The notes: generated from the letters alone by a model not told the origin. A DNA stretch of 64,000 bases from Oscillospiraceae bacterium (GCA_015063855.1 SVTI01000001.1:8017-72016); one strand, 5' to 3'; positions 35,726-50,636 are shown, counted from the stretch's first letter. A program made the numbers and translations.

Positions 35726-35762
35726 CATATCAATAATTTGAATTACTACGGAGGTAATAGAA

Positions 35763-36036: not shown

Positions 36037-36056
36037 GTTATAATTAAGGAAGAAAA

Positions 36057-37433
36057 ATGGTACATCAGTATAAATTAAACGGATATAATATAGTCCTTGA
36101 CACCTGTAGCGGCTCTGTTCACACCGTGGATGAGGTAGCTTATGATATAATCGAAATGTTTAACGATCATACAAGTGAACAAATAGTCAAGGAAATATCA
36201 CAGAGATATAAGCATCTCCCTGACGTAACCGAGGAGGAGATACTTGAGTGTATCGATGATATCAACTCTCTTATCGATGCGGGAAAGCTATTCTCCGAGG
36301 ACAAGTATGAAAAGCTTGCTTATACATATAAGAATAATTCTAATGTGGTTAAGGCGCTCTGTCTCCATGTTGCCCATGTATGCAACCTCAACTGCTCATA
36401 CTGCTTTGCAAGTCAGGGTAAGTATCAGGGAGAGAGAGCTCTCATGAGCTTCGAGGTCGGTAAGCAGGCATTTGACTGGCTTATTGCAAATTCGGGAACA
36501 AGAAGAAACCTCGAGGTAGACTTCTTCGGCGGCGAACCCCTGATGAATTGGGATGTAGTTAAACAGTTAGTTGAATATGCCAGAAGCATAGAAAAGAAAT
36601 ACGACAAGAATTTCCGCTTCACCCTTACCACTAACGGTGTATTGGTAGATGATGACGTTATCGAGTTTGCCAACCGTGAGATGAGTAACGTGGTATTAAG
36701 TCTCGACGGCAGAAAGTGTGTCCACGATCACTTCCGTGTAGACTATGCAGGCAAGGGCAGCTATGACACCATAGTTCCCAAGTTCAAGAAGTTTGTAGAG
36801 TCCAGAGGCGGCAAGGACTACTATATGAGAGGTACATTCACTCATAATAACGTAGACTTCACCGAGGATATCTTCCACATGGCAGACCTCGGGTTTACAG
36901 AGCTCAGCATGGAGCCTGTAGTATGTCCTCCCGATGATCCCTATGCATTGACAGAAGAGGATCTCCCCAAGCTCTTTGAGCAGTATGAGATCCTTGCTAA
37001 GGAAATGATCAAGCGTAAGAAGGAGGGTCGCCCCTTCACATTCTACCACTATATGCTTGATCTTAAAAACGGCCCCTGTATCTACAAGAGAATTACAGGT
37101 TGCGGTTCGGGTACGGAATATATGGCTGTTACCCCCTGGGGTGAGCTTTTCCCCTGCCATCAGTTTGTAGGTGATGAGAAGTACAGCCTCGGCAACGTAT
37201 GGGACGGTGTTACCAAGAAGGACGTTCAGGATCAGTTCCGTTGCTGTAATGCATACAGCCGCGAAGAATGTAAGGATTGCTGGGCAAGACTCTATTGCTC
37301 AGGCGGTTGTGCCGCTAACTCCTACCATGCCACCGGTTCTATCGGTGGTGTATATAAGTACGGCTGTGAGCTTTTCAAAAAGCGTATAGAATGTGCAGTG
37401 ATGATGCAGGTAGCAGAATCAGAGGAAGAATAA
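36057..37433 (+). CDS. scfB: SCIFF radical SAM / SPASM maturase
   Basis: CNLNCSYCF radical-SAM motif. Cys-rich SPASM C-terminus: CGSGTEY..CHQF..CKDCWARLYCSGGC. Confidence 0.9.
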   Translation: MVHQYKLNGYNIVLDTCSGSVHTVDEVAYDIIEMFNDHTSEQIVKEISQRYKHLPDVTEEEILECIDDINSLIDAGKLFSEDKYEKLAYTYKNNSNVVKALCLHVAHVCNLNCSYCFASQGKYQGERALMSFEVGKQAFDWLIANSGTRRNLEVDFFGGEPLMNWDVVKQLVEYARSIEKKYDKNFRFTLTTNGVLVDDDVIEFANREMSNVVLSLDGRKCVHDHFRVDYAGKGSYDTIVPKFKKFVESRGGKDYYMRGTFTHNNVDFTEDIFHMADLGFTELSMEPVVCPPDDPYALTEEDLPKLFEQYEILAKEMIKRKKEGRPFTFYHYMLDLKNGPCIYKRITGCGSGTEYMAVTPWGELFPCHQFVGDEKYSLGNVWDGVTKKDVQDQFRCCNAYSREECKDCWARLYCSGGCAANSYHATGSIGGVYKYGCELFKKRIECAVMMQVAESEEE

Positions 37434-38764: not shown

Positions 38765-39316
38765 TATGCTTCGAGCATGGAGATTAATTAAATTTATTAT
38801 TCAATACCCGAAGTAGAGTGACCGATAAATTGTAGTTTGAAGGGTTTCACCCTTCACCCGTATGCTTCGGGCTTGAAGTTCGATTAAATTCATCCTTTAA
38901 TGCCCGAAGTAGAGTGATTGATAAATTGTAGTTTATCGGGGAGTTTACTATAACAAAATGTCTTAAACAAACTAACGGAGAGCACTACACTAATAGCCTT
39001 CCCCAGCGGGGAAGGTGTCATTGGTGGAATTTTCAAAGCGCTTTCAGGCGGTTGGAAAATTCTACTCAATGACGGATGAGGAGAGCGTTTAAGATAGATA
39101 AGGTTTTCTATCGTATTAATTAAAGAGTAAACTATTAAATTTATAATTGTACCCTTTAAATATTACAATCAATTATTCAACGTGGCTTTACGTTCTCCTC
39201 ATCCGTCATTTAAAATAATTACCAAACGAGTTTAGTAATTATTTCAAATGACACCTTCCCCGCTGGGGAAGGCTACACGTGAAGTGCAAACACACCGATA
39301 TACTACAATTTACCGA
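38765..39316. repeat. Composite repeat region: 96-bp-period direct repeat plus a ~320-bp imperfect palindrome of hairpin modules
   Basis: The 32-bp unit cccgaagtagagtgaYYgataaattgtagttt occurs at 38807-38838 and 38903-38934, with an inverted partial copy at 39301-39314. The arm agccttccccagcggggaaggtgtcatt (38995-39022) pairs with aatgacaccttccccgctggggaaggct (39248-39275). The arm caatgacggatgaggagagcg (39067-39087) pairs with cgttctcctcatccgtcatt (39191-39210). Confidence 0.75.
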
Positions 39317-39383
39317 TACAAACAAGGATTTTATTACAAATAAATCCTAAAACAAGATTTTTTAAGAAATTTTCAAAAACCCC

Positions 39384-39432: not shown

Positions 39433-39523
39433 GGAGAAGTACTCAAGTCGGTGAAGAGGCGCCCCTGCTAAGGGTGTAGGTCGAGCAATCGGCGCGAGAG
39501 TTCGAATCTCTCCTTCTCCGCCA
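39433..39523 (+). tRNA. tRNA-Ser (anticodon GCU), class II with long variable arm, encoded CCA
   Basis: Acceptor stem GGAGAAG/CTTCTCC. Anticodon arm CGCCC-CTGCTAA-GGGTG. T arm GAGAG-TTCGAAT-CTCTC. Discriminator G followed by CCA. Confidence 0.9.
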
Positions 39524-39670
39524 CATAATCCCACACGGGATAATGAAACAACCCTCGAATTTCAAAGGTTCGAGGGTTGTTGCTTTAACTACAGGTGAAC
39601 AACAGTTCTAAAAATAAATACTGAACAGAACCCCGTATCAACAGTGAACCCTATTGATACGGGGGATATA

Positions 39671-40735
39671 TTACATAGGAGAAATCAAAAAATTATTCAT
39701 AAGCCGAACATTACCAGGATTATTACTAAGAAAATTCATCATCATTTCATCAAAAGATATTAAATATGAACTTTGGTCAACAAGAACGCTTAAACTATTG
39801 TCAATCTCATTTTTATCTAAAACTCTCACACATAACATATCAAATATATCATTTTTTAAAAGTTTTTGACCACGATCCAACCAAGCATTTAACATCAGTT
39901 TTAAATATTTAGCTTGGTGAATTGAATAGCCCTTTCGCATAAAGGCACTCACAATTTTGTTTTTTGCATATTCGGCAAATTTTGAATCTTCCGCAAGAGC
40001 GTCAACAATTATACCCATTATTTTAGAATCATTAAACCCGTTATTTCGTGCATCCATTGCCGATTGGCACATTATATCGTATAAATTCTCTTCACCGTTA
40101 AAATATTCAACTATAGTATCTATGATCATTTGAAAAACAATGCAATTTTGAACGAGTAAGTCTATATATTCTTTTTTTAAATACTGTTCAGGCTTGTTAG
40201 CGACGTAACCGTTTTTTAAGGAATCAGTTAATTGACCTTGATATTCATTTAAGTGATTGGACATTTCCTTTCCTAAATATGTTAAGACGTTGTTTTTAAC
40301 ACTTTTTAAATTGGAAAAATTATTGATATAATATTCTGCATATATAAGACTAATAATTGTTAAAAACATACACGAATGTTTAACTTCAATTTCAATTTTT
40401 TTATCTAACAAAGTATCAGCATACTGCTTCAAATCATCTTCCAACATAACGGAAAGCAATGTAAAGTTTTCGTTTGTATAACAATACTCTTGAATATTGT
40501 TTAAAATTCTTAAGTTTTTTTCTTGAATAAAATCAATAATGGTTCTAATCATTTTTGGCTGGTTTCTAAAATGAACTATCATTTCAATCAAAACAGAAGA
40601 AGGGATACTTTTGTTAGTTTGTTGGTCCAAATAATTACGTAACAATTCAACATGATGTTTTGGAACACTTTCTCCCATACCTAGCTTATCTCTCCCTATA
40701 TACCAATAAAAAGAATTTGCATCTAAATAAACCAT
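39671..40735 (-). CDS. Hypothetical protein; possible split PIN-like nuclease fold
   Basis: 354 aa. The N-terminus is VYLDANSF, the central region is helical, and acidic motifs lie near the C-terminus (NDIFDMLCV, ISFDEMM). The fold assignment is speculative. Confidence 0.5.
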   Translation of the reverse strand: MVYLDANSFYWYIGRDKLGMGESVPKHHVELLRNYLDQQTNKSIPSSVLIEMIVHFRNQPKMIRTIIDFIQEKNLRILNNIQEYCYTNENFTLLSVMLEDDLKQYADTLLDKKIEIEVKHSCMFLTIISLIYAEYYINNFSNLKSVKNNVLTYLGKEMSNHLNEYQGQLTDSLKNGYVANKPEQYLKKEYIDLLVQNCIVFQMIIDTIVEYFNGEENLYDIMCQSAMDARNNGFNDSKIMGIIVDALAEDSKFAEYAKNKIVSAFMRKGYSIHQAKYLKLMLNAWLDRGQKLLKNDIFDMLCVRVLDKNEIDNSLSVLVDQSSYLISFDEMMMNFLSNNPGNVRLMNNFLISPM

Positions 40736-41056
40736 AATTATTGCCTTTCAAATAATCTCGTAAATTTCCTTATTTTATAAAAATAATTATATAATATACA
40801 GATATAAATGTCAATTTAAATTAAATAGGGTTTTAAATGTACAAAATACTTTTGTATACTTATAATTAAACCGTTGTACGAAACAAAAATAATTGAAAAT
40901 ATATATTATTGAATTGAATAATGATAGATAAACCGTATCAAGGCTAAGTGCTTTGATACGGTTTTTTACTGGAAATTTGCGTGGAAAAAGGCGGTGGAAA
41001 GATTTTTTGAGAGGTATATAATTTTAATTAACTAAAAAGGACGGTGATATTGTTAT

Positions 41057-41332
41057 ATGAGTAAGAACTCTAAACCCGTATTGAACGGTGTATATGAAAC
41101 TATCAGCGAATTAATCGGGTTCGATAACACCGTTGAAATCTATAAGCATTTTGCAGGTAGTCAGATCAACTTTCCTACAAGACTTTTTTCAAAAGAATTT
41201 GTCTTGCAAGAAGCAATTAAAAACTACGATGGAACATCTAAATCAATCAATAAAATAGCCGTCAAATACAAATATAGCGAGCGTACAGTTAGAAAATTAC
41301 TTAAAGAACATCTTGATAACGATGATACGTGA
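41057..41332 (+). CDS. Small HTH protein (Mor/CD3324-like)
   Basis: 91 aa with C-terminus INKIAVKYKYSERTVRKLLKE. Confidence 0.5.
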   Translation: MSKNSKPVLNGVYETISELIGFDNTVEIYKHFAGSQINFPTRLFSKEFVLQEAIKNYDGTSKSINKIAVKYKYSERTVRKLLKEHLDNDDT

Positions 41333-41341
41333 GGTTTACAA

Positions 41342-41814
41342 ATGGGTAGAAATTCAATCACTTATATTACAGAAAACAACGATCATACAGAAGTAGAAAA
41401 AGAATTACAATTAAGGATCGCAAAAGAAAAAAACGGTGTCAAAAGATAGCTTTAGATTTTGGAGAAACCATAAGCGAAGAGGGTATATATACTACTACGA
41501 GAATTTCAAATACCGTAAAAGCAGACGGCACTGATTGTTTTTCCTGTACAGTAGTTTGCTATAATCTGCAGGAATATCGAAAGTCAACATTAGAGGAGCT
41601 TAAAGAAGAACTTTCAGAAGCGAAAGAAGAACTCGAGGACCTGAAAGAAGAATTGGGAGAAATAGAAGATCTGGACAAAGATGATTATGATGACTATGGT
41701 TTTGATTCCGAAAAAGAGTATAAGAAAAAGCTTGAAGATTTAAATGTAGATATCTTTCTAATCGAAACGGATATTGAAGTGATAGAGAAAATTTTTAGAA
41801 GAAAAAACTTATAA
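41342..41814 (+). pseudogene. Hypothetical coiled-coil/acidic protein (~157 aa) interrupted at an A7 run
   Basis: ATG 41342 (GAGG RBS) reads 33 codons to a TAG. The frame entered by adding one A at 41427-41433 stays open for a further ~125 codons to 41814 and has no start codon of its own. Confidence 0.45.
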
Positions 41815-41836
41815 AAAATAGAAGGAGGTAATTGTT

Positions 41837-42010
41837 TTGTCCATAAAGTTTTCTGATATTAAAAACTTTGTAAATAAGATTATAGCTTTTGTTATTGAAG
41901 ATCAAACGGCTACTCAAAAGTCACGCTTACTCGATGCAGAATCTAAAGCAAGACAAGCAGGAAGAAAAGATCTCGCTGAAGAAATCAGAAAAAAGAGAAA
42001 CGAATTATAA
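41837..42010 (+). CDS. Small hypothetical protein (57 aa, TTG start)
   Basis: GGAGG lies 8 nt upstream of the TTG. Sequence: SIKFSDIKNFVNKIIAFVIEDQTATQKSRLLDAESKARQAGRKDLAEEIRKKRNEL. Confidence 0.35.
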   Translation: MSIKFSDIKNFVNKIIAFVIEDQTATQKSRLLDAESKARQAGRKDLAEEIRKKRNEL

Positions 42011-42037
42011 TCTTAACAAAGACAAGGAGAAAGAATT

Positions 42038-42232
42038 ATGAGAAAATCACTCGGATCAAAAAAAGACAAGAAATGCTATACTTGTAGATTTTGGCAAGGA
42101 ACTTCAATGAGAGTCACAGGTCCGCAATTCTTGGAATACGACCAATCCGAAGAAGCAATATGTAATAACACAGGCTTTAAAAAGAAAGCTTGGTCAAGCT
42201 GTAGCGATCACGAAAAAAGATATGACCTTTAA
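42038..42232 (+). CDS. Small Cys-containing hypothetical protein
   Basis: 64 aa with an AAGGAGA RBS and a downstream hairpin (ccatcattc..gaatgatgg). Confidence 0.45.
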   Translation: MRKSLGSKKDKKCYTCRFWQGTSMRVTGPQFLEYDQSEEAICNNTGFKKKAWSSCSDHEKRYDL

Positions 42233-42332
42233 TACATAATGTTGGTGGGAAATTAAAAACGATGACTCCATCATTCTTTCGGGAATGATGGAGTTTTTTA
42301 TATAAATCTAATTTTACAACAGGAGGTGAACA

Positions 42333-42611
42333 ATGAAACATTTACTTGAAGATTTCTGGTACGGAAACATTTCACCGCAGACAGACAGTATCGAAAACAA
42401 CCCTGAGATCAAGAAATTGCTTGAACTTATGGGGCAGAACAGGGATAAGCTTTGTAAAACAATCTCCGATGAAGAACAGTTAACCTTGGAGAAATACGAT
42501 GATTGCCTTAATGAAATGAACGGGATTATTGAACGAGAAGCATTTATTTACGGCTTCAAGCTTGGCGGTAATATAATGCTTGAAATAATGAGCGAATCGA
42601 ATAACGAATAA
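42333..42611 (+). CDS. Hypothetical protein (family common on clostridial mobile elements)
   Basis: 92 aa beginning MKHLLEDFWYGNISPQ, with an AGGAGG RBS. Confidence 0.5.
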   Translation: MKHLLEDFWYGNISPQTDSIENNPEIKKLLELMGQNRDKLCKTISDEEQLTLEKYDDCLNEMNGIIEREAFIYGFKLGGNIMLEIMSESNNE

Positions 42612-42666
42612 TTGACCTATCATCCGATTTGGAGATGATGGATCTTAATTTTTCAAGGAGGAATTA

Positions 42667-42756
42667 ATGAAACACTTTATTTTAGGATTTATAACAACCT
42701 TTGCAATGCTTGTAGCAACCGATAAATTAGTAATGTCAAAAAAGGAAAGGGAGTAA
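42667..42756 (+). CDS. Tiny membrane peptide (29 aa)
   Basis: AGGAGG RBS. Sequence: MKHFILGFITTFAMLVATDKLVMSKKERE. Confidence 0.3.
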   Translation: MKHFILGFITTFAMLVATDKLVMSKKERE

Positions 42757-42759
42757 TTT

Positions 42760-42882
42760 ATGTTTGTGTTGGTGACAACATTATCAAAAATTGCGGTTGA
42801 ATCATTTTTGAGCGGTGTTAGCTGTGCTATTTCCCTCTACTGTGGGGTAAAAACTCCGAGGAACAGGAGGAAAAATGGTTAA
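42760..42882 (+). CDS. Tiny hydrophobic peptide (40 aa)
   Basis: GGGAG RBS. It overlaps the next start codon by 8 nt. Confidence 0.3.
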   Translation: MFVLVTTLSKIAVESFLSGVSCAISLYCGVKTPRNRRKNG

Positions 42883-43210
42883 GATAACTAAACACGCTGA
42901 CCTTGTTAATGTCAAGGATGAGAACATTCTGCCGTATATTAAATGCTTGCTTGGAAGAATTCAAGCAAGTTATAATTATCGCCCCGATCAGTCAATAGAA
43001 CCGATTGGGGCAGTTTTCCTTTTGGAAACAGATATCGACTTACTTAACTACGCTGAATTTGGACTATCCGTTCCCTTAACAGAAAATCGTTTTGAATGGA
43101 TAGAAACAGTTGAGCAAGGAAACTATTGTGACGGGTGTATCGTCATAGACAACGAGAGAGCCATCAACATTGTGGGAAAACGTGATTTCTTTGCAATGTT
43201 TGGGGCATAG
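42875..43210 (+). CDS. Hypothetical protein
   Basis: 111 aa with an AGGAGG RBS. Confidence 0.5.
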   Translation: MVKITKHADLVNVKDENILPYIKCLLGRIQASYNYRPDQSIEPIGAVFLLETDIDLLNYAEFGLSVPLTENRFEWIETVEQGNYCDGCIVIDNERAINIVGKRDFFAMFGA

Positions 43211-43275
43211 GTCATATAATCCATAGGGCATAAATCTAAGTGCCGTAACGAACAAAATTAGGAGTTGAAATTATT

Positions 43276-43602
43276 ATGTCAGAAAATAAAAACAGTAAGA
43301 ACGATAAGGAGAAGTTCAATGAACTTCTCACCTATCTTTCGGAGAACGAAGACAAGTTGAGGGTGCTTCTGTCTGGAGATCAAAAATTAGCACCCCTTGT
43401 TTACCCCATAAAAGGCAAGCGGTCAACTAAAACTGTGTTCATTGCCGAGAAGCTCCAATGCCTTGTAAACGAATACTGTATCGATAAGGAGCTAAAGATC
43501 GGTGATGTAATGGAATATGCCTTGATACAGTATTTGAATCAAAACGGCTATTCGGATAAGCTTGAAGCGATCCTTAAAAACTCGGAGGTGGTTAATCCGT
43601 GA
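43276..43602 (+). CDS. Small DNA-binding-like protein (possible ribbon-helix-helix), coupled to recombinase 1
   Basis: 108 aa. The C-terminal half KTVFIAEKLQCLVNEYCIDKELKIGDVMEYALIQYL has a strand-helix-helix pattern. It shares a GTGA overlap with the recombinase start. Confidence 0.45.
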   Translation: MSENKNSKNDKEKFNELLTYLSENEDKLRVLLSGDQKLAPLVYPIKGKRSTKTVFIAEKLQCLVNEYCIDKELKIGDVMEYALIQYLNQNGYSDKLEAILKNSEVVNP

Positions 43603-45092
43603 CATCCGAGAAGAAAGCAGCCATCTATGCCAGATACAGTTCAGACAATCAACGTGATGAATCAATAGATGCACAAATATGTGCTATGGAGAATTACGCT
43701 AAGAATCACGATATTCGTATTGTTGCTACATACATTGACAGAGCCAAGAGTGCTACAAGCGACCAACGACCCAGCTTTCAGGAAATGATCAAGGTAAGCG
43801 AAACGGGTCTGTTTAACATCGTCATGGTACATAAGCTGGATAGATTTGCAAGAAGCAAATATGATAGTGCAATCTACAAGCAAAAGCTTAAAGCAAACAA
43901 AGTTCAGTTGATAAGCGTAACCGAACAGTTGGACGGCTCTCCTGAATCTATTATTCTGGAATCTGTTCTTGAAGCAATGGCAGAATACTATTCCAAAAAC
44001 CTTGCAAGAGAGGTAATTAAGGGTCTAAGGGAGAACGCTAAGACTGCCACTCATACAGGCGGTGTAGCTCCTCTCGGCTATGATATAGTTGACAAGAAAC
44101 TTGTAATTAACGAGAACGAAGCTCAGGCGGTTAGAATAATCTTTGATATGTATTCACAAGGTCATCCGTATAGTGAGATCATCAACGTTCTTAATCAACA
44201 GGGACATGTAACACGAAAGGGAGTACCTTTTGTAAAGAACAGTTTGTATGAAATACTCCGCAACGAAAAATACCGTGGTGTCTATATATACAATAAATCT
44301 GCAAGTAAATCAGCTAATGGTACATACAATCGTCATGCCTACAAATCCGAGGACGAGATAATCAGGATAGATGGTGGGTGTCCTGCCATTGTTTCTAACG
44401 AGGTCTTTGAGATAGTTGCCAAGCGGCAGAGGGAGAACCGCAGGAAATTTGGCAGGAATGAAGGACGTCAGAAATACCTTCTGAGCGGATTGGTGTTCTG
44501 CGGTAACTGTAATGCTCCCATGCATGCCAACAAACGTAAAAAAACATCTCAGCTGACTTTTCGATGCAGCAACCAAGGAAAGACTTGCAAAGAAATAAAC
44601 ATGGCGGTATTAGAGACCCATGTGCTTCGAGTATTGAGAGAGAATATTTTCTCTTATCAAAAAATCCCTGATATAATGCGTATTATAGAGAAATATACAG
44701 GGGATTGCGATAATATGCAACGAAGCAAAACTGAGGATATAGAAACACAGCTTGCTGAGATATCACATTCTAAGGAAAACATTTTGAAAGCAATAGAAAG
44801 CGGAATCGTTGCTTCTCATTTCAGTATGCGATTGGATGAACTAAAAGCTCAGGAAGAGCTTCTACAAGCAGAATTAGTGCTTGCAAACCAACCTCAGAGC
44901 TTTCACGTGACCGAGAAGGACGTTAAACTGTTAATAAACCGATTTCACTTTATGATGAAGGAATACGATGTGGTAGGTCTTAGAAAAATCATTCTTGATT
45001 TTGTTAAGTCTATCACCGTAACTGCCGGAACAATCGATGTGAAATTAAAGATCTCCTTCGGTGATGTGGCGATTGATGAATTGTCTGCCTGA
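43599..45092 (+). CDS. Large serine recombinase 1
   Basis: GTG start. Catalytic motif: AAIYARYSSDNQRDESIDAQ. It has a recombinase domain, a zinc ribbon (CGNCNAPMH..FRCSNQGKTC) and a coiled coil. Confidence 0.9.
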   Translation: MTSEKKAAIYARYSSDNQRDESIDAQICAMENYAKNHDIRIVATYIDRAKSATSDQRPSFQEMIKVSETGLFNIVMVHKLDRFARSKYDSAIYKQKLKANKVQLISVTEQLDGSPESIILESVLEAMAEYYSKNLAREVIKGLRENAKTATHTGGVAPLGYDIVDKKLVINENEAQAVRIIFDMYSQGHPYSEIINVLNQQGHVTRKGVPFVKNSLYEILRNEKYRGVYIYNKSASKSANGTYNRHAYKSEDEIIRIDGGCPAIVSNEVFEIVAKRQRENRRKFGRNEGRQKYLLSGLVFCGNCNAPMHANKRKKTSQLTFRCSNQGKTCKEINMAVLETHVLRVLRENIFSYQKIPDIMRIIEKYTGDCDNMQRSKTEDIETQLAEISHSKENILKAIESGIVASHFSMRLDELKAQEELLQAELVLANQPQSFHVTEKDVKLLINRFHFMMKEYDVVGLRKIILDFVKSITVTAGTIDVKLKISFGDVAIDELSA

Positions 45093-45096
45093 CGAT

Positions 45097-45175
45097 GTGT
45101 CAATGTGTCCATGAAGAGTTAAGTCAAGCAAAATAATCAATCTAATGTGTCCGTCAAGTGTCCACTGATGTGTCA
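45097..45175 (+). repeat. Iteron cluster 1: five direct copies of GTGTC(C/A)
   Basis: Copies at 45097, 45105, 45147, 45158 and 45170, all on the plus strand. They lie between the convergent recombinase genes. Confidence 0.6.
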
Positions 45176-45199
45176 AATGCCCCTTAAAAAAGGGGCATT
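45176..45199. terminator. Bidirectional terminator (aatgcccctt aaaa aaggggcatt)
   Basis: Perfect 10-bp stem between convergent genes. Confidence 0.65.
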
Positions 45200-45202
45200 G
45201 AC

Positions 45203-46714
45203 TCAACAAGCTAACAAGGAAACCGTAGCACCTTCATTGTCAATATCAACTCTTTCGACATAGGTGCGGATCAAACTTTCAACGAAATAACGGTTGGTTT
45301 CCTGCTTGCAATAGGAAATGAAGATTGACCTTGCTCTTATAATATCATCTTCGCTTGGGACATAGGATAAAGACCTTGTCAATTCCGTAATGGCAATGGA
45401 AAGCTCGGCTTTTTCTTTGGCTAAAATATCCAAGCGTTCGGTGATTTGTTCGGAAGTCTCCTCAGAGCATTCCTCTAACTGGCTGATTAGGTTGTCACAA
45501 CGCTTTTTGAGTCTTGAATGCTGAGTCTTCAACTCTGATAACTTAGCCTTATTTTTTTTGGAAAGATTGGAGAAATTTTCGGAAAAGGTTTGAAGGAATT
45601 CCTTGGATAATAATTTTTGACACAAACAATTCAAGACAAAATCCTCCAACTTGAACATATCGACTTCTTTGACGTCGCATTCCCTGTGAGCCTTACTGTT
45701 GGGACAATAAAAACTGATATATAGCTTATCGTGGTTGTTTCTACGGTTAGCGTGCATGACCTGATCTCCGCAATTCTTGCAAAACACCTTGCCTGACAAT
45801 AAATAACGGGTACTTTTCGAGGAACGCTTCTTTTTCGAGGCTTCAGGCTGAGCCTTATCCCAAAGCTCAGGGCTAACGATTGGAGTACATGAGTACTTGA
45901 CGATAAGCTTTTCGTCCTTGTATAAATGCCTGTTAAACCCGTTTGTACCACGAGCAGATGAACGATTGTATTGTAATTCTCCCTTGTAACAAGGATTTGT
46001 GATAATTTCACGAATCCCGCTGACCTTAAACTGACGGTTCAACTTAGAAGTATAACCCTGCTCATTTAATATATCAGCAATTTTCTGCATACTTACTCCT
46101 TGAGCACGTTGATTAAAGATTTTTTCGACAATAAGCTTCTTTTTAGGGTCGATGGTAAGAATTCCATCAATAACCTGATAGCCCAATGGAGCTGTTCCGC
46201 CCTGCCATCTGCCCTTTTGAGCTCCTGTCAGCTTTCCACGTGCAATGTTTTCTCCGATTCGATGTGACTCTAATTCAGCCTGTTGTGCAACAAAAAAGCG
46301 GAAGGTCTCTGTCATGGGGAACACGTTGTTCAGCATAGATTCTTGTGCAGTCAACAGATTGGTATCATAATCCTTCATGGTATATTGATACTCCATAAAT
46401 AATCTTGCATTTCTGAAAAATCTGTCAAGACGATAAACAAGTACCAGATCCCATTCTCTCTCAGGATTAGATAGCTCACTCATTAGAGCTTGTAAGCCCT
46501 CACGGTCAGCGTTGCGTCCGGACTTGCCATCGTCTTTGAAAATGCCAACAATTTTGAGACCATTTCGTTTGGCAAATGCCTCATTGAATGAGATTTGGCT
46601 TTCGATAGATTCTTCTTGGTAGGAGGTAGAACAACGGGCATAAATAACACAGCGTTTTGTACGGCTTAACTCAATCATATCAGGGGATTTCTCCCCTGAA
46701 TTAAAATCAATCAT
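45203..46714 (-). CDS. Large serine recombinase 2
   Basis: Catalytic motif: RCVIYARCSTSYQEESIESQ. It has a zinc ribbon (CKNCGDQVMH..FYCPNSKAHREC) and a coiled-coil C-terminus. Confidence 0.9.
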   Translation of the reverse strand: MIDFNSGEKSPDMIELSRTKRCVIYARCSTSYQEESIESQISFNEAFAKRNGLKIVGIFKDDGKSGRNADREGLQALMSELSNPEREWDLVLVYRLDRFFRNARLFMEYQYTMKDYDTNLLTAQESMLNNVFPMTETFRFFVAQQAELESHRIGENIARGKLTGAQKGRWQGGTAPLGYQVIDGILTIDPKKKLIVEKIFNQRAQGVSMQKIADILNEQGYTSKLNRQFKVSGIREIITNPCYKGELQYNRSSARGTNGFNRHLYKDEKLIVKYSCTPIVSPELWDKAQPEASKKKRSSKSTRYLLSGKVFCKNCGDQVMHANRRNNHDKLYISFYCPNSKAHRECDVKEVDMFKLEDFVLNCLCQKLLSKEFLQTFSENFSNLSKKNKAKLSELKTQHSRLKKRCDNLISQLEECSEETSEQITERLDILAKEKAELSIAITELTRSLSYVPSEDDIIRARSIFISYCKQETNRYFVESLIRTYVERVDIDNEGATVSLLAC

Positions 46715-46871
46715 AAAGCACCACCTCCTCTGAGAAGAAGCGATAGAGAAACTCTAAGGCAACCGTTACGTCAGTTACAATATTAGCGTTATGAACAGCC
46801 GTTTTAACGGCTTCGTAATCAGCGGAATATAGGGCGTTTCTACTGATTGTGATAAGTAACTTTTTCATCAT
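46707..46871 (-). CDS. Small protein (54 aa) translationally coupled to recombinase 2
   Basis: Not in the ORF track. GGAGG RBS. Sequence: MMKKLLITISRNALYSADYEAVKTAVHNANIVTDVTVALEFLYRFFSEEVVLYD. Its stop overlaps the recombinase ATG. Confidence 0.4.
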   Translation of the reverse strand: MMKKLLITISRNALYSADYEAVKTAVHNANIVTDVTVALEFLYRFFSEEVVLYD

Positions 46872-46883
46872 TTTACCTCCTAA

Positions 46884-48257
46884 TCAAAACTCAGTATAAC
46901 GATAATCTCTTTTGATAGAAACACCATGGCAAAAACGATGATTACCTGAGTTTTTTCTCACAGTGGGAGGGTATCCTAACAGGATCATTGCATTGTCAAG
47001 CTCTCTCCAAAATTTTTTGGATGACATATTTGAAAATCCTCTGTGTCCATTTTCGGAGCACCAAAGCTTAAATGAATTATATACAACACGATTCTCCTCT
47101 TTTTCACGAGGATCATCGAGAATCAAGCATTCATTGATAAATTCTAAGAAGGGATTCTGTTCTACACGATATTCTTGTAAGAGAATATCTGAGCTTTTAC
47201 AGGGGCTGAATTTGAAGTCATTTGACTTTAGACGGTCAAGTCCTATCAATGCCCAGTTGAAAATTCCAGGGAGCTCTTCTTTGAGCTTCTCTGTGAGATG
47301 AACGTCTCTTTCATCATCATTAAAGAATTTTGAGAAATGAAGGAATTGAAGCCTACGGTAATAACCCTCACTTCTATCCTTTGTGTCTGGAAGGTTATTG
47401 GTTGACATTACGATCTTGCACTTAGGAAAGAATTCAAAAGGTTTCTTGTTCTTGTGAGATGCCATGATGCAAGTGTCTCCGCCTACAATCTGTTTGAAAT
47501 ACTGTGTGTTAAGATGGGATATTTCATTTTCCGAGCTCATAATTAACTGCTTGTCAACAAGGGTAGCTCTAACGAACTGATTGGATAAGTCAGCTAAACC
47601 TGCATAGGAGATGTTAGATCTACCAACAAGGGCTTCAATAATTGAGCTGAAAACACCTTTGCCATTACCGCCAGAGCCGTACAATACCAAAGCTTTTTGA
47701 GCTCTCGTTTCACTACTTAATAAATAACCTAAACATTCCTGTGATAGATTAATTCTTTCTTTGTCACCCTCGAAAGATGATTCCAAAAAGCTTTCCCAAA
47801 TTGGGCATTGGGCATCTGGGTCATATTCGAATGGTAATTGAACCGTACTGTAATATTCTCTCGCATGTTCGATTAAATCTCTTGTTTCTAAATCCAACAT
47901 CCCATTACGGAAATTTATGAATTTTTTGTTCTCGTTCAGTTCTCCTGCATAAAAAACCTTGTGCTTAAGAGATTCCCAATATAGGTGCTCATAACTTGGT
48001 TTCCAAGTATTTTGAGCACGCTCATTAAAATCATTCACCAACGTATTTTTGAGTTCCATATCTGATGTTTGGGTATATACCCCGTCGTTGTAATAATACC
48101 AGCATTGGTCTTTTGAGTACATTAAATCGTAATCATTATCAACAACATTAGCATACACATTACCATTAAACTCTTTGATGTCACCATTATCTTTAAATAC
48201 AAAACCAATTTTCACCATACGCAATGTTGCATAATCCGCTATCTTTTTTTTGGGCAT
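46884..48257 (-). CDS. P4-alpha / poxvirus D5-type replication protein (SF3 helicase, primase C-terminal domain family)
   Basis: Start trimmed to MPKKKIADY (GGAGG RBS). Motifs: FRNGMLDL, CPIWESFL, Walker A VLYGSGGNGKGVF, YYRRLQFLHF. Confidence 0.8.
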   Translation of the reverse strand: MPKKKIADYATLRMVKIGFVFKDNGDIKEFNGNVYANVVDNDYDLMYSKDQCWYYYNDGVYTQTSDMELKNTLVNDFNERAQNTWKPSYEHLYWESLKHKVFYAGELNENKKFINFRNGMLDLETRDLIEHAREYYSTVQLPFEYDPDAQCPIWESFLESSFEGDKERINLSQECLGYLLSSETRAQKALVLYGSGGNGKGVFSSIIEALVGRSNISYAGLADLSNQFVRATLVDKQLIMSSENEISHLNTQYFKQIVGGDTCIMASHKNKKPFEFFPKCKIVMSTNNLPDTKDRSEGYYRRLQFLHFSKFFNDDERDVHLTEKLKEELPGIFNWALIGLDRLKSNDFKFSPCKSSDILLQEYRVEQNPFLEFINECLILDDPREKEENRVVYNSFKLWCSENGHRGFSNMSSKKFWRELDNAMILLGYPPTVRKNSGNHRFCHGVSIKRDYRYTEF

Positions 48258-48486
48258 AAAAACCTCCAAAATAATAATAAATTTCTCTTTCGAGATAGTA
48301 CTATTATTTACATAACGCCAAATATAAACTCATATTTCCAAAATAAGCTAAATAATGCCGTGCTATATCAATCTTAATTAAACCTAAAATGCCCGTCGCA
48401 CATGGGCAAACAGGCATTTTGTAATTATTTCTTATAATTAAAATTTCTAATGAATAAAATAAAAAATCTAATTTTTCTAAATTGGA

Positions 48487-48636
48487 AAATTGATTCAAAT
48501 TGAAACAAATTGATTTGTGGAATTGAAATAGCATGAACTTAGAAAAATGTTGTTCGAAGTGTCCATGTGTCCATCGACAGTAACTATAAGGAAAAAAGAC
48601 AACAGGAAGTGTCAAAGAAGTGTCCTGAATCTGTCA
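48487..48636 (+). repeat. Candidate replication origin: 10-bp-phased AAATTGA repeats in an AT-rich tract, plus iteron cluster 2 (GTGTC(C/A) x4-5)
   Basis: AAATTGA occurs at 48487, 48497 and 48507, with AATTGA at 48521. GTGTCCA occurs at 48559 and 48567, GTGTCA at 48609, GTGTCC at 48620 and TGTCA at 48632. Confidence 0.5.
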
Positions 48637-48760
48637 AAGAACGATGTTCCTGATGAATGTAAGGAATTAACACAAGCAATATAGTTAAAAAACTTGATGT
48701 GGGACATAACAATTTTCGGATTTCTGTGTGGGAAACTACGGGCAGCGAACCTTCTCCGCC

Positions 48761-48839
48761 AACAAAAAAGGACACCATAAGGTGTCCTTTTTTGTTGCTG
48801 TTTGTTTGGCAGATTCGAACTCGAAGCGCCGAGTATCGG
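48761..48839 (+). repeat. ~80-bp direct repeat, copy 1 (terminator hairpin plus inverted partial tRNA-Ser variable/T-arm fragment)
   Basis: About 93% identical to 49612-49688. It is preceded by ccttctccgcca (48750-48761, a 12-bp tRNA 3'-end match). The reverse complement of 48805-48839 resembles the tRNA segment tcggcgc..agttcgaatct. Confidence 0.7.
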
Positions 48840-48959
48840 CGGGGGTCAAGTGCAGGTTTGCGCCGCCGGGGGCGGATAAAGCAAACCGAACTTGCGTGCC
48901 GCAACACAACGAGCACGAGCGACTTTAGGAGCGAAGGGGGAGTTGATGTTGCAAACGGG

Positions 48960-48980
48960 CGAATCTCTCCTTCTCCGCCA
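48960..48980 (+). repeat. 21-bp direct repeat of the tRNA-Ser 3' end (right att-type junction)
   Basis: Exact match to 39503-39523. Confidence 0.85.
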
Positions 48981-49079: not shown

Positions 49080-49582
49080 ATGGCAAAACAATTTTTGTGG
49101 ATAACGAACACAGAAGAAAACATACAGTTTTATCGTGATTCTTCCCCTAAGTCCAACCTTTCGCTTCATTTTGCATCTGCTATTGATTGCGACACAAAGA
49201 AAAACATTTGCAGATTTGTTCGCTATTTAAGGAAAGAGTTTTTCTTCCCGATAAGATGCAATGTTTATTTTTGCAATCAGGAAAAGTTTCATTCCTCCAA
49301 AGGAGGATATTGCTACGGTATCTTTTACTCAAACGAGGAAAGCGGAGGACGCATTTATCCGCAGATCTACATACCTACAAACATGAATTTGTTCTCCGTT
49401 TATCATTCGCTCTCGCACGAGCTAACGCATTATTTTCAGTGGTACTTTTTAGACGATAACGAAAAAGCGACCGTTCGCTCGAAGTTCAGGCGTCAAGATA
49501 TGCGGATCGCGTTTTGGAAGATTATTGTAGTTACTATTGTAAAGAGCCAGACAGTTCATGTAATGGTTGCCGCGGACAATAA
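49080..49582 (+). pseudogene. Small HExxH (putative metallopeptidase-like) protein interrupted at an A5 run
   Basis: Contains the motif YHSLSHELTHYFQWYF. After the A5 run at 49462-49466, a plausible C-terminus (SLEVQASRYADRVLEDYCSYYCKEPDSSCNGCRGQ*) continues in the frame reached by adding one A. That frame ends just before a terminator. Confidence 0.5.
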
Positions 49583-49611
49583 ATTTTGTATCAAAATTAC
49601 AGTCATCTGTC

Positions 49612-49688
49612 AACAAAAAGGACACCTTAGGGTGTCTTTTTTGTTGCTGTTTGTTTGGAAGATTCGAACTCGAAGCGCCGAGTATCGG
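49612..49688 (+). repeat. ~80-bp direct repeat, copy 2 (includes the terminator of the HExxH gene)
   Basis: Sequence: aacaaaaaggacaccttagggtgtcttttttgttgctgtttgtttggaagattcgaactcgaagcgccgagtatcgg. Confidence 0.7.
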
Positions 49689-49725
49689 ATTATTTATACA
49701 AAAATAAATAATTTACGCAATAAAA

Positions 49726-49754
49726 TTGACAATCACAGCAATATACTATATAAT
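49726..49754 (+). promoter_or_regulatory. Consensus sigma-A promoter (TTGACA-17-TATAAT) of the aminotransferase gene
   Basis: Sequence: ttgaca atcacagcaatatacta tataat. Confidence 0.6.
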
Positions 49755-49787
49755 AATAATCAAAATATTACTGTAAAGAGGCTTATT

Positions 49788-50636
49788 ATGAAAACCGTAG
49801 CTTATTTTAACGGGGCATTTGGAGATTTTGACACAATGACTGTTCCCATGTCGGAACGCTCAATATATTTCGGTGATGCCGTGTATGATGCAGTGCTTGT
49901 GTTGGATGGCAAGGCATTTACCCTCGATATGCATCTTGACAGACTGTATAACAGTTGCAGTCTGATGAATATAGACTTCACTATGGAGAGAGCCGAGCTT
50001 AATGCTGAGATAAACAAGCTTCTTTCTCTCGGCTGTGGCGGTATCGAGATGCTGTATGTTCAGGTGTCACGAGGTAATGCATCCCGTAAGCATGAATTCC
50101 CCGAGAATGTCCGTCCCAATCTTCTCATGTTCGTTAAGTCTATCACCCTTCCCTCTGCAGATAAGCGTGCTTCCCTTCTCTCAATGGAGGATATGCGCTT
50201 TAAGTATTGCAATATCAAGACTGTAAATCTCTTACCTAACGTTTTTGCAGCACAGAAGGCTACCGAAAGCGGATATACCGAAGCAATTATGCACCGAGAC
50301 GGTCGTGTGACCGAGGCAGCTCATTCAAGCATTCTTATCCTTAAGAACGGCAAGGTAATAATGCCTCCCTTGGATAATCTCATTCTTCCCGGCATCACAA
50401 GAGCGGTAATATCGCAGATATGCGAGGAGCTGGGCATTCCCGCAGAGATCAGAGAATTCACCCTCGACGAGGTCATGGATGCCGACGAGATCCTTCTCTG
50501 CTCCACCACAAAGAACGTTATTTTCGTCTACAATATAGACGGCAGAGAGGTTGGCGGCAAGGATCAGGAAACAGCTAAGAAGATTCAAGAGCTTTTCCTT
50601 GATAAAATTTATAAAGAAACAGGAGTACGCTTATAG
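49788..50636 (+). CDS. dat: Class IV aminotransferase, D-amino-acid aminotransferase-like
   Basis: Start trimmed to MKTVAYFNG. The track ORF from 49080 is a read-through artefact. It has the HLDRLYNS motif, and 282 aa is typical of Dat. Confidence 0.65.
   Translation: MKTVAYFNGAFGDFDTMTVPMSERSIYFGDAVYDAVLVLDGKAFTLDMHLDRLYNSCSLMNIDFTMERAELNAEINKLLSLGCGGIEMLYVQVSRGNASRKHEFPENVRPNLLMFVKSITLPSADKRASLLSMEDMRFKYCNIKTVNLLPNVFAAQKATESGYTEAIMHRDGRVTEAAHSSILILKNGKVIMPPLDNLILPGITRAVISQICEELGIPAEIREFTLDEVMDADEILLCSTTKNVIFVYNIDGREVGGKDQETAKKIQELFLDKIYKETGVRL

Follow-up and report, generated by a model that had tools for sequence, protein, structure and literature searches.

A tRNA-Ser(GCU) island in an Oscillospiraceae bacterium, probably placed there by large serine recombinases

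What put a mobile island at the end of a tRNA gene, and where does that island stop? The question is raised by a window of 64,000 nucleotides from an Oscillospiraceae bacterium (GCA_015063855.1, SVTI01000001.1:8017-72016). This window is the whole stretch that was analysed, and positions are counted from its first letter. An original prediction described a 9.5-kb island, ending at a 21-bp copy of the tRNA end, in which the only recombinases are two large serine recombinases (LSRs). It also noted a conflict, as a repeat of around 20 bp looks like the attachment (att) site of a tyrosine integrase.

The tRNA gene is present and intact as predicted, and the boundary features are as follows.

39433-39523, + strand: intact tRNA-Ser(GCU) gene, the integration target (ARAGORN; Rfam RF00005, 54.7 bits).
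39524-39587, + strand: left element end (P' arm), with CATAA, TCCCACAC at 39529-39536 and a hairpin at 39541-39587 (inverted-repeat search; the P' arm is conserved in relatives).
48716-48761, + strand: right element end (attR), a P arm with GTGTGGGA (48726-48733), then 16 nt, then the 12-bp core CCTTCTCCGCCA (48750-48761); the arm is conserved in 12 relatives.
48762-48980, + strand: separate 219-bp unit outside the LSR element, made of a host-type tRNA terminator hairpin, a GC-rich structured stretch and the 21-bp copy (48960-48980).

The 21-bp tRNA end, CGAATCTCTCCTTCTCCGCCA, is indeed found exactly at 39503-39523 and again 9.4 kb downstream at 48960-48980, where chance would give 0 copies. 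There is also a third, 12-bp copy of the tRNA end, at 48750-48761. A 12-mer search shows that the last 12 nt of the gene (39512-39523, the attL core) have four occurrences in the window, versus 0 expected. This core consists of the last T-stem base, the 3' strand of the acceptor stem, the discriminator and CCA. The layout is that of Islander-type tRNA islands: a whole tRNA gene at one end, with displaced 3' fragments (12 nt, and a further 21 nt) beyond.

Which of these copies ends the island follows from comparison with related elements, labelled L002 and so on. The window, L002, L012, L021, L144 and L147 have in common an arm GTGTGGGAAACT..GGGCA.CGAA directly followed by the core, and an equivalent arm, GTGGGGATT..CGAA plus core, is common to L008, L014, L015 and L018. 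Rightward of the core the relatives diverge into host terminators; the DNA there is unrelated host DNA, mostly a terminator hairpin. Because of this comparison, the right junction is placed at the 12-bp copy and not at the 21-bp repeat. This gives the island a span of 39524-48761, about 9.24 kb, and makes 48762-48980 something else. A same-species empty site was searched for and none was found, so the boundaries rest on element-to-element comparison.

This also removes the conflict, since the att identity of the element does not lie in the 21-bp repeat. It amounts to 12 bp, starts where an LSR-type attP has its centre of symmetry, and simply gives the tRNA back its acceptor stem and CCA. Region 39524-48761 is best read, with good but not complete confidence, as an integrated small replicative island that used large-serine-recombinase chemistry to enter tRNA-Ser(GCU) at its 3' end.

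The 219-bp unit is separate from the LSR element and lies in tandem to its right. It has no match in Rfam. L014 carries a homologous 218-bp unit in a likewise nested arrangement, with a 22-bp outer copy. Elsewhere in the same genome, another island ends in a similar tRNA-Ser end, at 7708-7728. The earlier suggestion that an LSR element had landed inside an older tRNA island does not hold, as the LSR element itself abuts the tRNA gene, like it does in 14 other genomes.

One could still take the 21-bp repeats as the true ends. A 9.46-kb unit would then have been moved by a tyrosine integrase supplied in trans, in the manner of a cis-mobilisable element, leaving the serine recombinases to resolution or inversion. 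The T loop, where the 21-bp identity begins, is a typical starting point for tyrosine-integrase sites in tRNA genes, and both the nesting in L014 and the end of the other island agree with this. Yet at least eight relatives with sequence past attR have the 12-bp copy only, without an outer repeat, the conserved arm abuts that copy with a host-type terminator after it, and the attP-type junctions described below use the 12-bp core. A tyrosine integrase is also missing from, and from beside, every family member. This account is very unlikely.

That absence had been predicted for the island, and it extends further. No Phage_integrase match was found in any ORF of at least 45 aa, nor in intergenic stop-to-stop peptides, nor in the called genes of relatives.

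For the LSR reading, the rebuilt attP is informative. Its 49 bp form an imperfect palindrome, GTGTGGGA-N33-TCCCACAC, whose centre is the first core base and whose layout is GTGTGGGA-N16, the 12-nt core and N5-TCCCACAC. The spacing is identical in both types of element in the family (A and B), and the motif pair co-varies between them. In the window's attP, symmetry about CC holds at 16 of 24 positions. As a sequence pattern, this geometry (around 50 bp, inverted arms, short attB identity) fits an LSR site. By symmetry alone, strand exchange would most likely take place at the CC where the T stem meets the acceptor stem, because this is both the attP centre and the first position identical to the tRNA. 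The B half-site (the T arm) is dissimilar to the other three half-sites.

Junctions of the attP type exist. Two metagenome contigs of element length in Logan, L098 and L099, which stem from two sequencing runs, have them at their ends, and the tandem arrays L015 and L019 contain them as well. The ends of L098 fail to close exactly, with about 25 nt missing, and tandem chromosomal copies could be the source of such junctions instead of free circles.

On the LSR reading, a circular form would carry the attP of about 49 bp, its arms flanking 12 bp identical to the tRNA end. On integration the element would supply everything 3' of the crossover in the restored tRNA: acceptor strand, discriminator, CCA and a terminator hairpin. 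The hairpin at 39541-39587 can serve as that terminator. At the other end, attR would be marked by the displaced original 12 nt and then the host terminator.

The window is not alone. Uncultured Clostridia carry at least 14 related elements, every one of them directly 3' of tRNA-Ser(GCU) and ending in arm plus 12-bp core. They measure 5.1-11.6 kb, each with a 12-bp direct repeat. Of 11 close relatives of the first recombinase, SR1, from GTDB species genomes, 10 have tRNA-Ser(GCU) 2-4 kb upstream and share its orientation, and the metagenome copies L002, L003/4, L008-10 and L144-147 are likewise at this gene. SR1 homologues at 55-84% identity sit there whenever enough flank is available. The prediction of a tRNA-Ser-targeted island with two LSRs as its only recombinases is supported. 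The target always lies downstream of a Ser(UGA) gene with which it forms a pair, and L011 has the 12-nt end in both genes; specificity for GCU is therefore inseparable from place in the pair. No family member was found in IMG/VR. The island itself, in a gut or rumen Clostridia genome, belongs to a conserved family that is apparently undescribed so far.

The recombinases and their immediate surroundings are these.

43276-43602, + strand: 108-aa ORF, translationally coupled to SR1 by a 4-nt overlap with its start.
43599-45092, + strand: SR1, large serine recombinase of 497 aa, motif YARYSSDNQ (Pfam).
45095-45198, + strand: iteron cluster 1, five A[AT]GTGTC[AC] copies (45095-45175), then a bidirectional terminator hairpin.
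45203-46714, - strand: SR2, second large serine recombinase, 503 aa, motif YARCSTSYQ (Pfam).
46707-46871, - strand: 54-aa ORF between helicase and SR2, overlapping the SR2 start by 8 nt.

Much of this had been anticipated: two recombinases of around 500 aa with these motifs and zinc ribbons, facing each other across a terminator (the hairpin at about 45175-45198), with SR2 coupled to a 54-aa ORF after the helicase gene. Both have all the LSR parts, with Pfam matches above cut-offs. SR1 scores 4.4e-28 for Resolvase, 2.7e-18 for Recombinase and 5.6e-10 for Zn_ribbon_recom, and SR2 scores 3.4e-27, 1.4e-20 and 1.7e-06; the Resolvase domains contain the Y-x-R-x-S-[ST] serine motif, and the zinc domain is a beta-ribbon. 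The two are only 29% identical to each other. Among solved structures, TP901-1 Int and SprA/YokA come closest.

SR1 nests within a radiation of LSRs whose genes border on the 3' ends of tRNA or tmRNA genes. Among distant homologues with enough flank, a tmRNA or tRNA 3' end lies within 200 bp of the recombinase gene end, on the opposite strand, in 21 of 60 genomic and 13 of 31 viral cases, and target type tracks clade. Many distant relatives are prophage integrases at a prophage end. Since its wider clade consists of recombinases abutting tRNA and tmRNA genes, SR1 is read as the site-specific integrase, probably the one specific for tRNA-Ser. SR2 is different: its search gave 14 hits versus 5494 for SR1, and its types A and B form one small clade, seen only in this family.

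Perhaps, then, the integrase is SR2, or both proteins act as an obligate heteromer, and the kinship of SR1 is uninformative about its role here. SR2 is always present and confined to the family, and in type-B elements its gene is next to attR. The odd T-arm half-site could be helped by two specificities, as proposed for CcrA/CcrB (PMC10581047, citing Misiura 2013). A deletion derivative, L145/146, keeps both att sites, SR2 and the helicase, and has lost most of SR1. This fits decay, and equally SR2 sufficiency; it may be a dead remnant. Against such a role, SR1-like recombinases acting alone are found at tRNA-Ser, tRNA-Pro and tmRNA genes, so that a requirement for two is not implied. SR1 is also the more conserved of the pair, at 83% versus 70% between the window and L002. 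An SR2 or heteromeric integrase is a possibility to keep in mind, if a rather unlikely one.

With SR1 as the integrase, SR2, which is co-inherited with it throughout the family, would most likely be a partner (as with CcrA/CcrB) or a replicon resolvase. The 108-aa ORF is in every family member, at 37-76% identity. Its coupling to SR1 was correctly predicted; its supposed RHH-like nature is not verified by a low-confidence single-sequence model (pLDDT 56.6), which has a strand-helix-helix C-terminal half. The protein is a candidate directionality factor or regulator.

The remaining genes are listed here.

39671-40735, - strand: cargo ORF of 354 aa, 26-28% GC.
41057-41332, + strand: Mor-like transcription activator, 91 aa, the first conserved core gene (Pfam Mor, E 1.5e-4; PHROG 836 'late transcriptional activator', E 2.5e-10).
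41653-43210, + strand: small ORFs of 53, 57 and 64 aa (the last Cys-rich), DUF6809 (42333-42611) and a 111-aa ORF (42875-43210).
46884-48269, - strand: SF3 helicase of P4 primase C-terminal / D5 type, without primase domain (Pfam D5_N, DUF5906, Pox_D5).
48270-48715, + strand: AT-rich non-coding region, GC 0.29, with iteron cluster 2 (four copies, 48557-48625).

The helicase scores 236 bits for TIGR01613 (cut-off 109), and its matches to PHROG primase families are limited to their C-terminal parts. By sequence it is a probable self-loading replication initiator, and 48270-48715 is a probable replication origin or control region. Iteron cluster 1 is at the equivalent position in L002, L012, L021 and L147. 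All type-A elements have iteron clusters at two positions; type-B elements have another repeat instead. Helicases in the family are either Primase_Cterm/D5_N, as in the window, or DUF927, which type-B relatives carry with HTH_56, and both types have an ORF of 50-55 aa in the position of the 54-aa one. After excision, the helicase, which resembles Cch2 and SaPI5 Rep, would load at the A[AT]GTGTC[AC] iterons and the circle would be replicated. The Mor-like activator, present in all relatives, would drive expression of the core genes.

There are cargo slots at both element ends. The left one here holds the 354-aa protein, whose AF2 model (pLDDT 86.5) has a PIN/VapC-like N-terminal domain and then a long helical domain. 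VapC matches are weak only, and Pfam, NCBIfam, PHROG and PADLOC give none. A consensus promoter (12/12) lies ahead of the gene at 40814-40786 on the - strand, and the gene next to a homologue codes for an Mrr_cat nuclease, in surroundings of toxin and defence genes. It is a candidate toxin or defence gene. As the only large ORF of unknown function it could have been a recombinase, but the model has no recombinase fold. In relatives the cargo is Thoeris, or an AAA_15 ATPase together with a DUF4276 protein. L002, L012 and L021 have also kept the 64-aa and 111-aa ORFs. The interior had been called AT-rich, which is strongly so for 39.5-42 kb (GC 0.26-0.34); the rest of the island is at 0.36-0.43, and the left flank at 0.44-0.47.

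Might all this be a decayed prophage, or unrelated mobile fragments that accreted at a tRNA hotspot and no longer form a functional unit? Structural, packaging, relaxase and conjugation genes are absent from the element ORFs (Pfam, NCBIfam, PHROG), most small ORFs have no assigned function, prophage integrases are among the distant relatives of SR1, and deletion derivatives exist: L145/146 and the second copy in L015. Decay is nevertheless hard to square with a compact order (Mor, 108-aa ORF, SR1, helicase, small ORF, SR2) kept with intact frames in at least 14 genomes, where SR1 is at 55-84% identity, or with catalytic motifs kept in both recombinases. A 97%-identical variant has different cargo, which indicates recent mobility, and there are the attP-type junctions. 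Decay or accretion is most improbable.

Several known systems resemble a functioning island of this kind. Closest in working are SCC/SCCmec and SbCIccrDE, likewise cassettes moved solely by LSRs, often paired. SCC also enters and restores the 3' end of a conserved housekeeping gene, leaves short direct repeats, has a self-loading helicase and small ORFs next to its recombinase genes, and shows variable cargo and tandem or composite arrays. The SCC helicases are Cch (DUF927) and Cch2 (Primase_Cterm/D5_N) (PMC7581432), and these two alternatives equal those of the tRNA-Ser family, as matched by domain definitions and not by orthology: TIGR01613 and D5_N in the window, DUF927 in type-B relatives. 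As SbCIccrDE illustrates, rlmH is not the only target open to SCC-like islands (PMC10581047).

The island is not a member of SCC, however. SR1 and SR2 reach 153.8 and 142.5 bits for NCBIfam CcrB (cut-off 900), 85 and 111 for CcrA (cut-off 700) and 86 and 56 for CcrC (cut-off 900). The target is a tRNA gene versus rlmH or rimL, and the direct repeats copy the tRNA end. Unlike in SCC, the recombinase genes are convergent or separated by the helicase gene, with no adjacent operon; CCPol, LP1413, DUF950, DUF960 and DUF1643 genes are missing; and there are a Mor-like activator and anaerobic Clostridia as hosts. Of the SCC-like gene set proposed originally, the helicase, small ORF and LSR stand. This is an SCC-like replicative island with a tRNA gene target.

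For tRNA targeting by a serine recombinase there is an experimental precedent. ORF14 of phiRSM, a filamentous phage of Ralstonia, is a small serine recombinase using a 13-nt core, TGGCGGAGAGGGT, which is the 3' end of tRNA-Ser(UCG) (PMC3816273). The logic is the same, with nearly the same part of the tRNA. ORF14 is however of the small resolvase/invertase type, without the Recombinase and zinc-ribbon domains of LSRs, and phiRSM is an 8.9-kb inovirus of Betaproteobacteria with a single recombinase and no helicase module. Prophage LSRs (A118, SPbeta SprA, TP901-1) share the domain architecture and an attP of around 50 bp with inverted arms, but these model integrases target protein-coding genes, and here two LSRs are inside a non-phage island.

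SaPI/PICI elements are also islands of about 7-15 kb with a Rep-type self-loading SF3 helicase, iterons, site-specific integration, accessory or defence cargo and no structural genes; their integrases, in contrast, are of the tyrosine type. P4-like satellites share the helicase family of the P4 alpha C-terminus (TIGR01613), tRNA 3'-end integration, a transcription activator gene and cargo hotspots with defence genes. P4 differs in its tyrosine integrase and psu, sid and delta, whereas here LSRs are the recombinases and the helicase is without primase domain. Of possible satellite genes, Pfam, NCBIfam and PHROG gave only the Mor-like activator and the helicase; a Stl-like repressor, terS, and genes for capsid remodelling, packaging or psu/sid/delta were not recognised. 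Hidden satellite functions are possible, because five small ORFs are without known function. An Islander-type tyrosine-integrase island would share the tRNA arrangement but have the Phage_integrase gene that is missing here, and an IME or ICE would differ in its relaxase, coupling protein and type IV secretion domains, which the element ORFs lack. For transfer between cells, phage hitch-hiking is the leading guess.

More tentatively, at somewhat short of an even chance, this may be the first recognised case of widespread SCC-like replicative cassette islands in anaerobic Firmicutes, in which an ancestral LSR pair targets tRNA-Ser(GCU), one LSR coming from the radiation at tRNA and tmRNA 3' ends and the other confined to the family. 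If so, tRNA and tmRNA genes would regularly be targeted by serine recombinases besides tyrosine integrases, and SCC would turn out to be one staphylococcal branch of a much broader design, consisting of a helicase, an LSR pair and cargo slots.

The window contains a single tRNA gene according to ARAGORN, a tRNA-Ser(GCU) at 39433-39523 on the forward strand, which scores 54.7 bits in Rfam. The 21-mer at its 3' end, CGAATCTCTCCTTCTCCGCCA, has exact copies at 39503-39523 and 48960-48980, where chance would give none. The original prediction had described this arrangement of an intact tRNA and a downstream 21-bp copy of its end, and ARAGORN, Rfam and the 21-mer search agree on it. A shorter word, the 12-mer CCTTCTCCGCCA, has four copies in the window (7717, 39512, 48750 and 48969), also against an expectation of zero. 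This 12-mer consists of the last T-stem base, the 3' strand of the acceptor, the discriminator and CCA. The gene set between the repeat copies is as had been described.

Predicted genes of the island, in window positions (LSR, large serine recombinase)
39671-40735, reverse strand: 354-aa ORF, in DNA of 26-28% GC
41057-41332: Mor-like ORF of 91 aa (ORF calls and domain search)
between the Mor-like and 108-aa ORFs, forward strand: several small ORFs, including DUF6809
43276-43602: 108-aa ORF, overlapping the GTG start of SR1
43599-45092, forward strand: SR1, an LSR of 497 aa with Resolvase, Recombinase and Zn_ribbon_recom domains and the catalytic serine motif
45203-46714, reverse strand, convergent to SR1: SR2, an LSR of 503 aa with Resolvase, Recombinase and Zn_ribbon_recom domains and the catalytic serine motif
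46707-46871: 54-aa ORF, overlapping the start of SR2
46884-48269: helicase of 461 aa with D5_N, DUF5906 and Pox_D5; TIGR01613 (P4-family primase C-terminal) at 236 bits, cut-off 109

SR1 and SR2 share 29% identity. No tyrosine recombinase signature is present in any ORF or in the intergenic stop-to-stop peptides, as had been claimed. The interior had also been called AT-rich. This holds for the left 2 kb, but the rest of the island is not markedly so. The 108-aa ORF gives a single-sequence AF2 model with a pLDDT of 56.6, too low a quality for a structure search.

The 21-bp repeat had been taken as the end of the island, and this is where the original prediction has to be corrected. SR1 homologues at 55-84% identity were traced to their own contigs, which carry L-numbers here. 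The right end of these relatives is the same arm plus the 12-bp core, and beyond the core the sequence is unrelated, usually with a terminator hairpin. In the window, GTGTGGGAAACTACGGGCAGCGAA lies directly 5' of the 12-mer copy at 48750-48761, and a perfect terminator hairpin with a 17-bp stem lies 3' of it. Such a hairpin is what the downstream region of the native tRNA gene would be expected to show. At least eight relatives have sequence past attR, the right junction, and none of these has a longer outer repeat. Because relatives end in arm and 12-bp core without an outer repeat, comparison with them places the predicted LSR element at 39524-48761. Core-to-core lengths run from 5.1 to 11.6 kb across the family, and the window copy measures 9,238 bp.

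Empty sites were also looked for. A scan of metagenomes for junctions between the tRNA end and either downstream flank turned up nothing but the unoccupied tRNA-Ser of an unrelated organism (L090). Exact look-ups of the flanking proteins led to short contigs breaking at the repeat, or to contigs matching the window at 100% identity. The GTDB species genomes do not include the window's species with its island, and the best match there is 84%.

Joining the right arm to the left end gives the attP site. In the window it reads GTGTGGGA, 16 nt, the 12-nt core, CATAA and TCCCACAC. The family has two variants, called type A (which includes the window) and type B, and the type-B attP reads GTGGGGAT, 16 nt, the core, 5 nt and ATCCCCAC. 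Types A and B have the same spacing, and a change in the outer motif goes with a change in its inverted partner. The whole site is 49 bp long, with 16 of 24 positions symmetric in the window. Its axis of symmetry falls on the first C of the core, and for this reason identity to the tRNA starts exactly at the centre of attP; it extends to the 3' side only. Judging by this geometry, strand exchange would occur at the central dinucleotide CC. The half-site on the P' arm, which is the left end of the element, would then have to supply the acceptor strand and CCA for the tRNA to be restored. One-sided identity from the centre outward is what such an exchange would be expected to leave. A hairpin supplied by the element (39541-39587) follows right after the restored tRNA.

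Every family locus with enough flank has the same gene set immediately 3' of tRNA-Ser(GCU), in the same orientation. This placement is found in 10 of the 11 GTDB loci, and also in L002, L003/4, L008-10 and L144-147. In L008 (7430-7521) the tRNA adjoining the element has the anticodon GCG, which ARAGORN reads as Arg, and is otherwise the Ser(GCU) gene of L009 and L010; the difference is due to a point mutation or to a variant of the assembly. Directly upstream of the type-B element in L017 there are three consecutive serine-recombinase-like ORFs (23-3794; 433, 287 and 535 aa), at the position where other loci have tRNA genes.

There are also signs of movement. L098 (7,591 bp) and L099 (6,569 bp) are element-length Logan contigs from different runs, and both end in an attP-type junction made up of arm, core and 18 nt of the P' arm. 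The start of L098 maps about 25 nt further along the circular map. We take the Logan assembly graph to have k=31, and our interpretation is that the break 18 nt past the 12-nt core marks the merging of the attP path with that of attL, the junction at the intact tRNA. The attP-type junction is also found inside the MAG contigs L015 and L019, as tandem arrays; in L015 the second copy is a deletion derivative. Over 5 kb, L094 matches the window element at 97% identity, but its left-hand cargo is different. The attP-type junctions and this cargo swap show recent activity, and they fit free circles or tandem copies alike. A further derivative, in L145/L146, has shrunk to 5.06 kb from the element of L144 (L145 cores at 1540-1551 and 6599-6610). 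What remains of it is both att junctions, the helicase, the small ORF, SR2 and the C-terminal 195 residues of SR1; the Mor and 108-aa genes are gone. A virus-like identity of the element is not supported: in IMG/VR nothing matches the element arm exactly, and no close member of the family turned up.

The two recombinases differ greatly in their number of relatives: at E<=1e-30, SR1 has 5,494 and SR2 only 14. In a neighbour-joining tree the SR2 proteins of types A and B form one clade, apart from SR1 and its relatives. SR1 and SR2 are therefore both ancestral to the element family. We take SR1 to be the targeting integrase. SR2 would be its partner, as in CcrA/CcrB, or a replicon resolvase.

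Distant SR1 homologues (27-49% identity, with enough flank) frequently adjoin the same kinds of gene. With "near" defined as a tmRNA or tRNA 3' end at most 200 bp from the end of the recombinase gene and on the opposite strand, such an end is near in 21 of 60 genomic loci and 13 of 31 from IMG/VR. The neighbours of these 34 recombinases are tmRNA (12), tRNA-Ala (10), tRNA-Ser with anticodon GGA or GCU (5), tRNA-Pro(CGG) (3) and others (4). Target type tracks the clades of the tree, in which the sister of the SR1 family is a mixed group, with several tmRNA-adjacent clades among its members. Adjacency is what points to integration of the distant relatives at these genes, because displaced fragments were not found: within 10-kb flanks there was no repeat of at least 11 nt, except in L086, with one 16-nt copy 200 bp from the tRNA. 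Many single LSR genes in L026-L089 and L107-L139, whose products are 27-49% identical to SR1, end no more than a few bases from the 3' end of an opposite-strand gene for tmRNA or for tRNA-Ser, -Pro, -Ala, -Arg or -Gln. These loci include Paenibacillus and Brevibacillus genomes and IMG/VR prophage contigs, and the recombinase ORF sometimes overlaps the tRNA end.

Types A and B are told apart by the module around SR2. In type A (the window, L002, L012, L021, L144 and L147) a Primase_Cterm/D5_N helicase goes with a 50-54-aa ORF, and SR2 is on the strand opposite SR1. In type B (L008-10, L015, L017-20 and L098) the helicase is DUF927 plus HTH_56, the small ORF has 55 aa, and SR2 is on the strand of SR1. 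The staphylococcal SCC elements have two helicases: Cch, a DUF927 protein resembling SaPIbov1 Rep, and Cch2, a Primase_Cterm/D5_N protein resembling SaPI5 Rep (PMC7581432). The helicases of types A and B are exactly these two types.

Nine of the 11 A[AT]GTGTC[AC] motifs in the window lie in two clusters:
45095-45175, forward strand: five copies, between SR1 and SR2
48557-48625, forward strand: four copies, upstream of the helicase, about 125 bp before attR

The two clusters are built alike: a pair of copies spaced 8 bp apart, then about 42 bp of AT-rich sequence, then copies spaced 11 bp apart. L002, L012, L021 and L147 have these clusters in the same two positions. Type-B elements lack them; in L008, which is of that type, TTTTGAAAGTCAA occurs three times upstream of the helicase. 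The clusters bracket the module of SR2, 54-aa ORF and helicase, and it is possible that they are SR2 sites. By analogy with the SaPI and Cch2 origins (PMC7581432), they are most likely origin iterons.

The segment from attL to Mor varies between elements, and in some relatives so does the segment from helicase to attR.

Cargo of family elements
Window: 354-aa ORF
L094: HMA-domain protein
L003: AAA_23/AAA_21 ATPase
L144: Thoeris ThsA/ThsB, LRR_5 and GIY-YIG proteins
L147: AAA_15/21 ATPase and DUF4276 protein

A Ruminococcaceae MAG encodes a hypothetical protein identical to the 354-aa cargo protein. The structural model of the cargo protein is confident (pLDDT 86.5), and against the PDB it gives weak VapC/PIN-like matches over the first ~85 residues (E 0.6-2, probability <=0.98). 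PADLOC has no match for the protein. In L151 (9203-11071) an Mrr_cat nuclease gene is followed, after 16 nt, by a homologue with 58% identity, and Fic, RelB/ParE, HipA and Macro genes are the neighbours. This suggests that Mrr_cat and the homologue form a two-gene defence or toxin module there, and a putative toxin or defence role of the 354-aa protein is plausible. It was also considered as a divergent tyrosine integrase. This was rejected, given no family matches and a confident model with only a weakly PIN/VapC-like N-terminus.

The longer repeat copy belongs to a unit of about 219 bp, which two of some ten family members have between the 12-bp attR and a 21-22-bp copy of the tRNA end. In the window (48762-48980) the order is host-type terminator, GC-rich stretch and 21-bp copy. 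At the corresponding position L014 has a unit of 218 bp (14521-14738), which ends in a 22-bp copy. The two units align, and their hairpins are conserved, with one compensatory change (CCGCC/GGCGG versus CUGCC/GGCAG). Folding z-scores are weak (-1.75 and -1.57), and Rfam has no family for the unit, even at E up to 5. Since it is without the arm motifs of the LSR element, the unit was rejected as a miniature copy of that element. It may be a remnant or miniature derivative of a different island family targeting tRNA-Ser.

Other repeats and neighbours were seen as well. The first 74 nt of the unit, a terminator hairpin plus 53 nt, are repeated with 95% identity (48765-48839 and 49615-49688). The second copy is inside a 518-aa ORF (49080-50636), in which a 177-aa part with an HExxH motif runs in frame into a class IV aminotransferase (true start 49788). 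Just upstream of the tRNA a 74-nt sequence occurs twice in direct orientation with 82% identity (38765-38838 and 38861-38934), and the same region (38765-39317) has long inverted repeats (38982-39022 with 39247-39287, and 39051-39088 with 39190-39227). Further left, a gene annotated as SCIFF peptide in an identical JGI contig is found upstream of a gene for a radical-SAM/SPASM maturase (36057-37433); this region (35700-37433) is ordinary host content. The first 7,728 nt of the window are AT-rich, with ParA (3505-4326, reverse), ParB (2625-3545, reverse) and ORFs of no assigned function. Positions 7708-7728 read CACATCTCTCCTTCTCCGCCA, which matches the tRNA-Ser 3' end at 19 of 21 positions. A hairpin resembling that after 48761 comes next. 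Another island probably has its right end here, with its tRNA left of the window.

In how it works, the element most resembles SCC. In both, insertion is LSR-driven and goes into the 3' end of a housekeeping gene, which is restored; both also have short direct repeats, a helicase of the Cch or Cch2 type adjoining the recombinase, cargo slots and tandem arrays. However, on the CcrB model (cut-off 900) the two recombinases score 154 and 143 bits, insertion is not in rlmH, and the other conserved ccr-complex genes are absent. The element is therefore SCC-like in operation and not a member of SCC. A change of target has a parallel in SbCIccrDE, an SCC-like island that moved to rimL (PMC10581047). 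The one verifiable experimental precedent for a serine-family enzyme at a tRNA-Ser 3' end comes from phage phiRSM, whose small recombinase has a 13-nt core (PMC3816273). No description of the element family or of a tRNA/tmRNA-specialised LSR clade was found in the literature; island databases may already hold such calls. The original prediction of a tRNA-Ser-targeted, SCC-like island with only LSRs was substantially right on the target, the recombinases and the gene set, and what it had noticed is real and non-random. Two points are to be corrected: the boundary and core are the 12-bp copy at 48750-48761, and the likeness to SCC does not extend to membership.

According to standard teaching, insertion at tRNA and tmRNA genes is a hallmark of tyrosine integrases. 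Elements like these would escape any island finder that accepts a tRNA gene as a target only together with a tyrosine integrase. LSRs are preferred tools for genome engineering, since short sites suffice and no host factors are needed. Those with a near-universal tRNA or tmRNA 3' end as attB could give ready landing sites in gut anaerobes that are hard to engineer.

A 2026 survey reports that serine integrases prefer coding sequences (PMC13626063). The island family and the wider clade, at tmRNA and tRNA-Ser, -Pro, -Ala and -Arg, point to LSRs routinely targeting such genes in Firmicutes. Rumen and gut bacteria also have Thoeris and ATPase-based defence systems on these elements. Cch- and Cch2-type helicases paired with LSRs outside staphylococci bear on the origin of SCCmec, and this pairing likewise bears on whether replication after excision is a general feature of cassettes. 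The main interest lies in the family-wide targeting of tRNA by LSRs, together with the parallel to both SCC helicase types.
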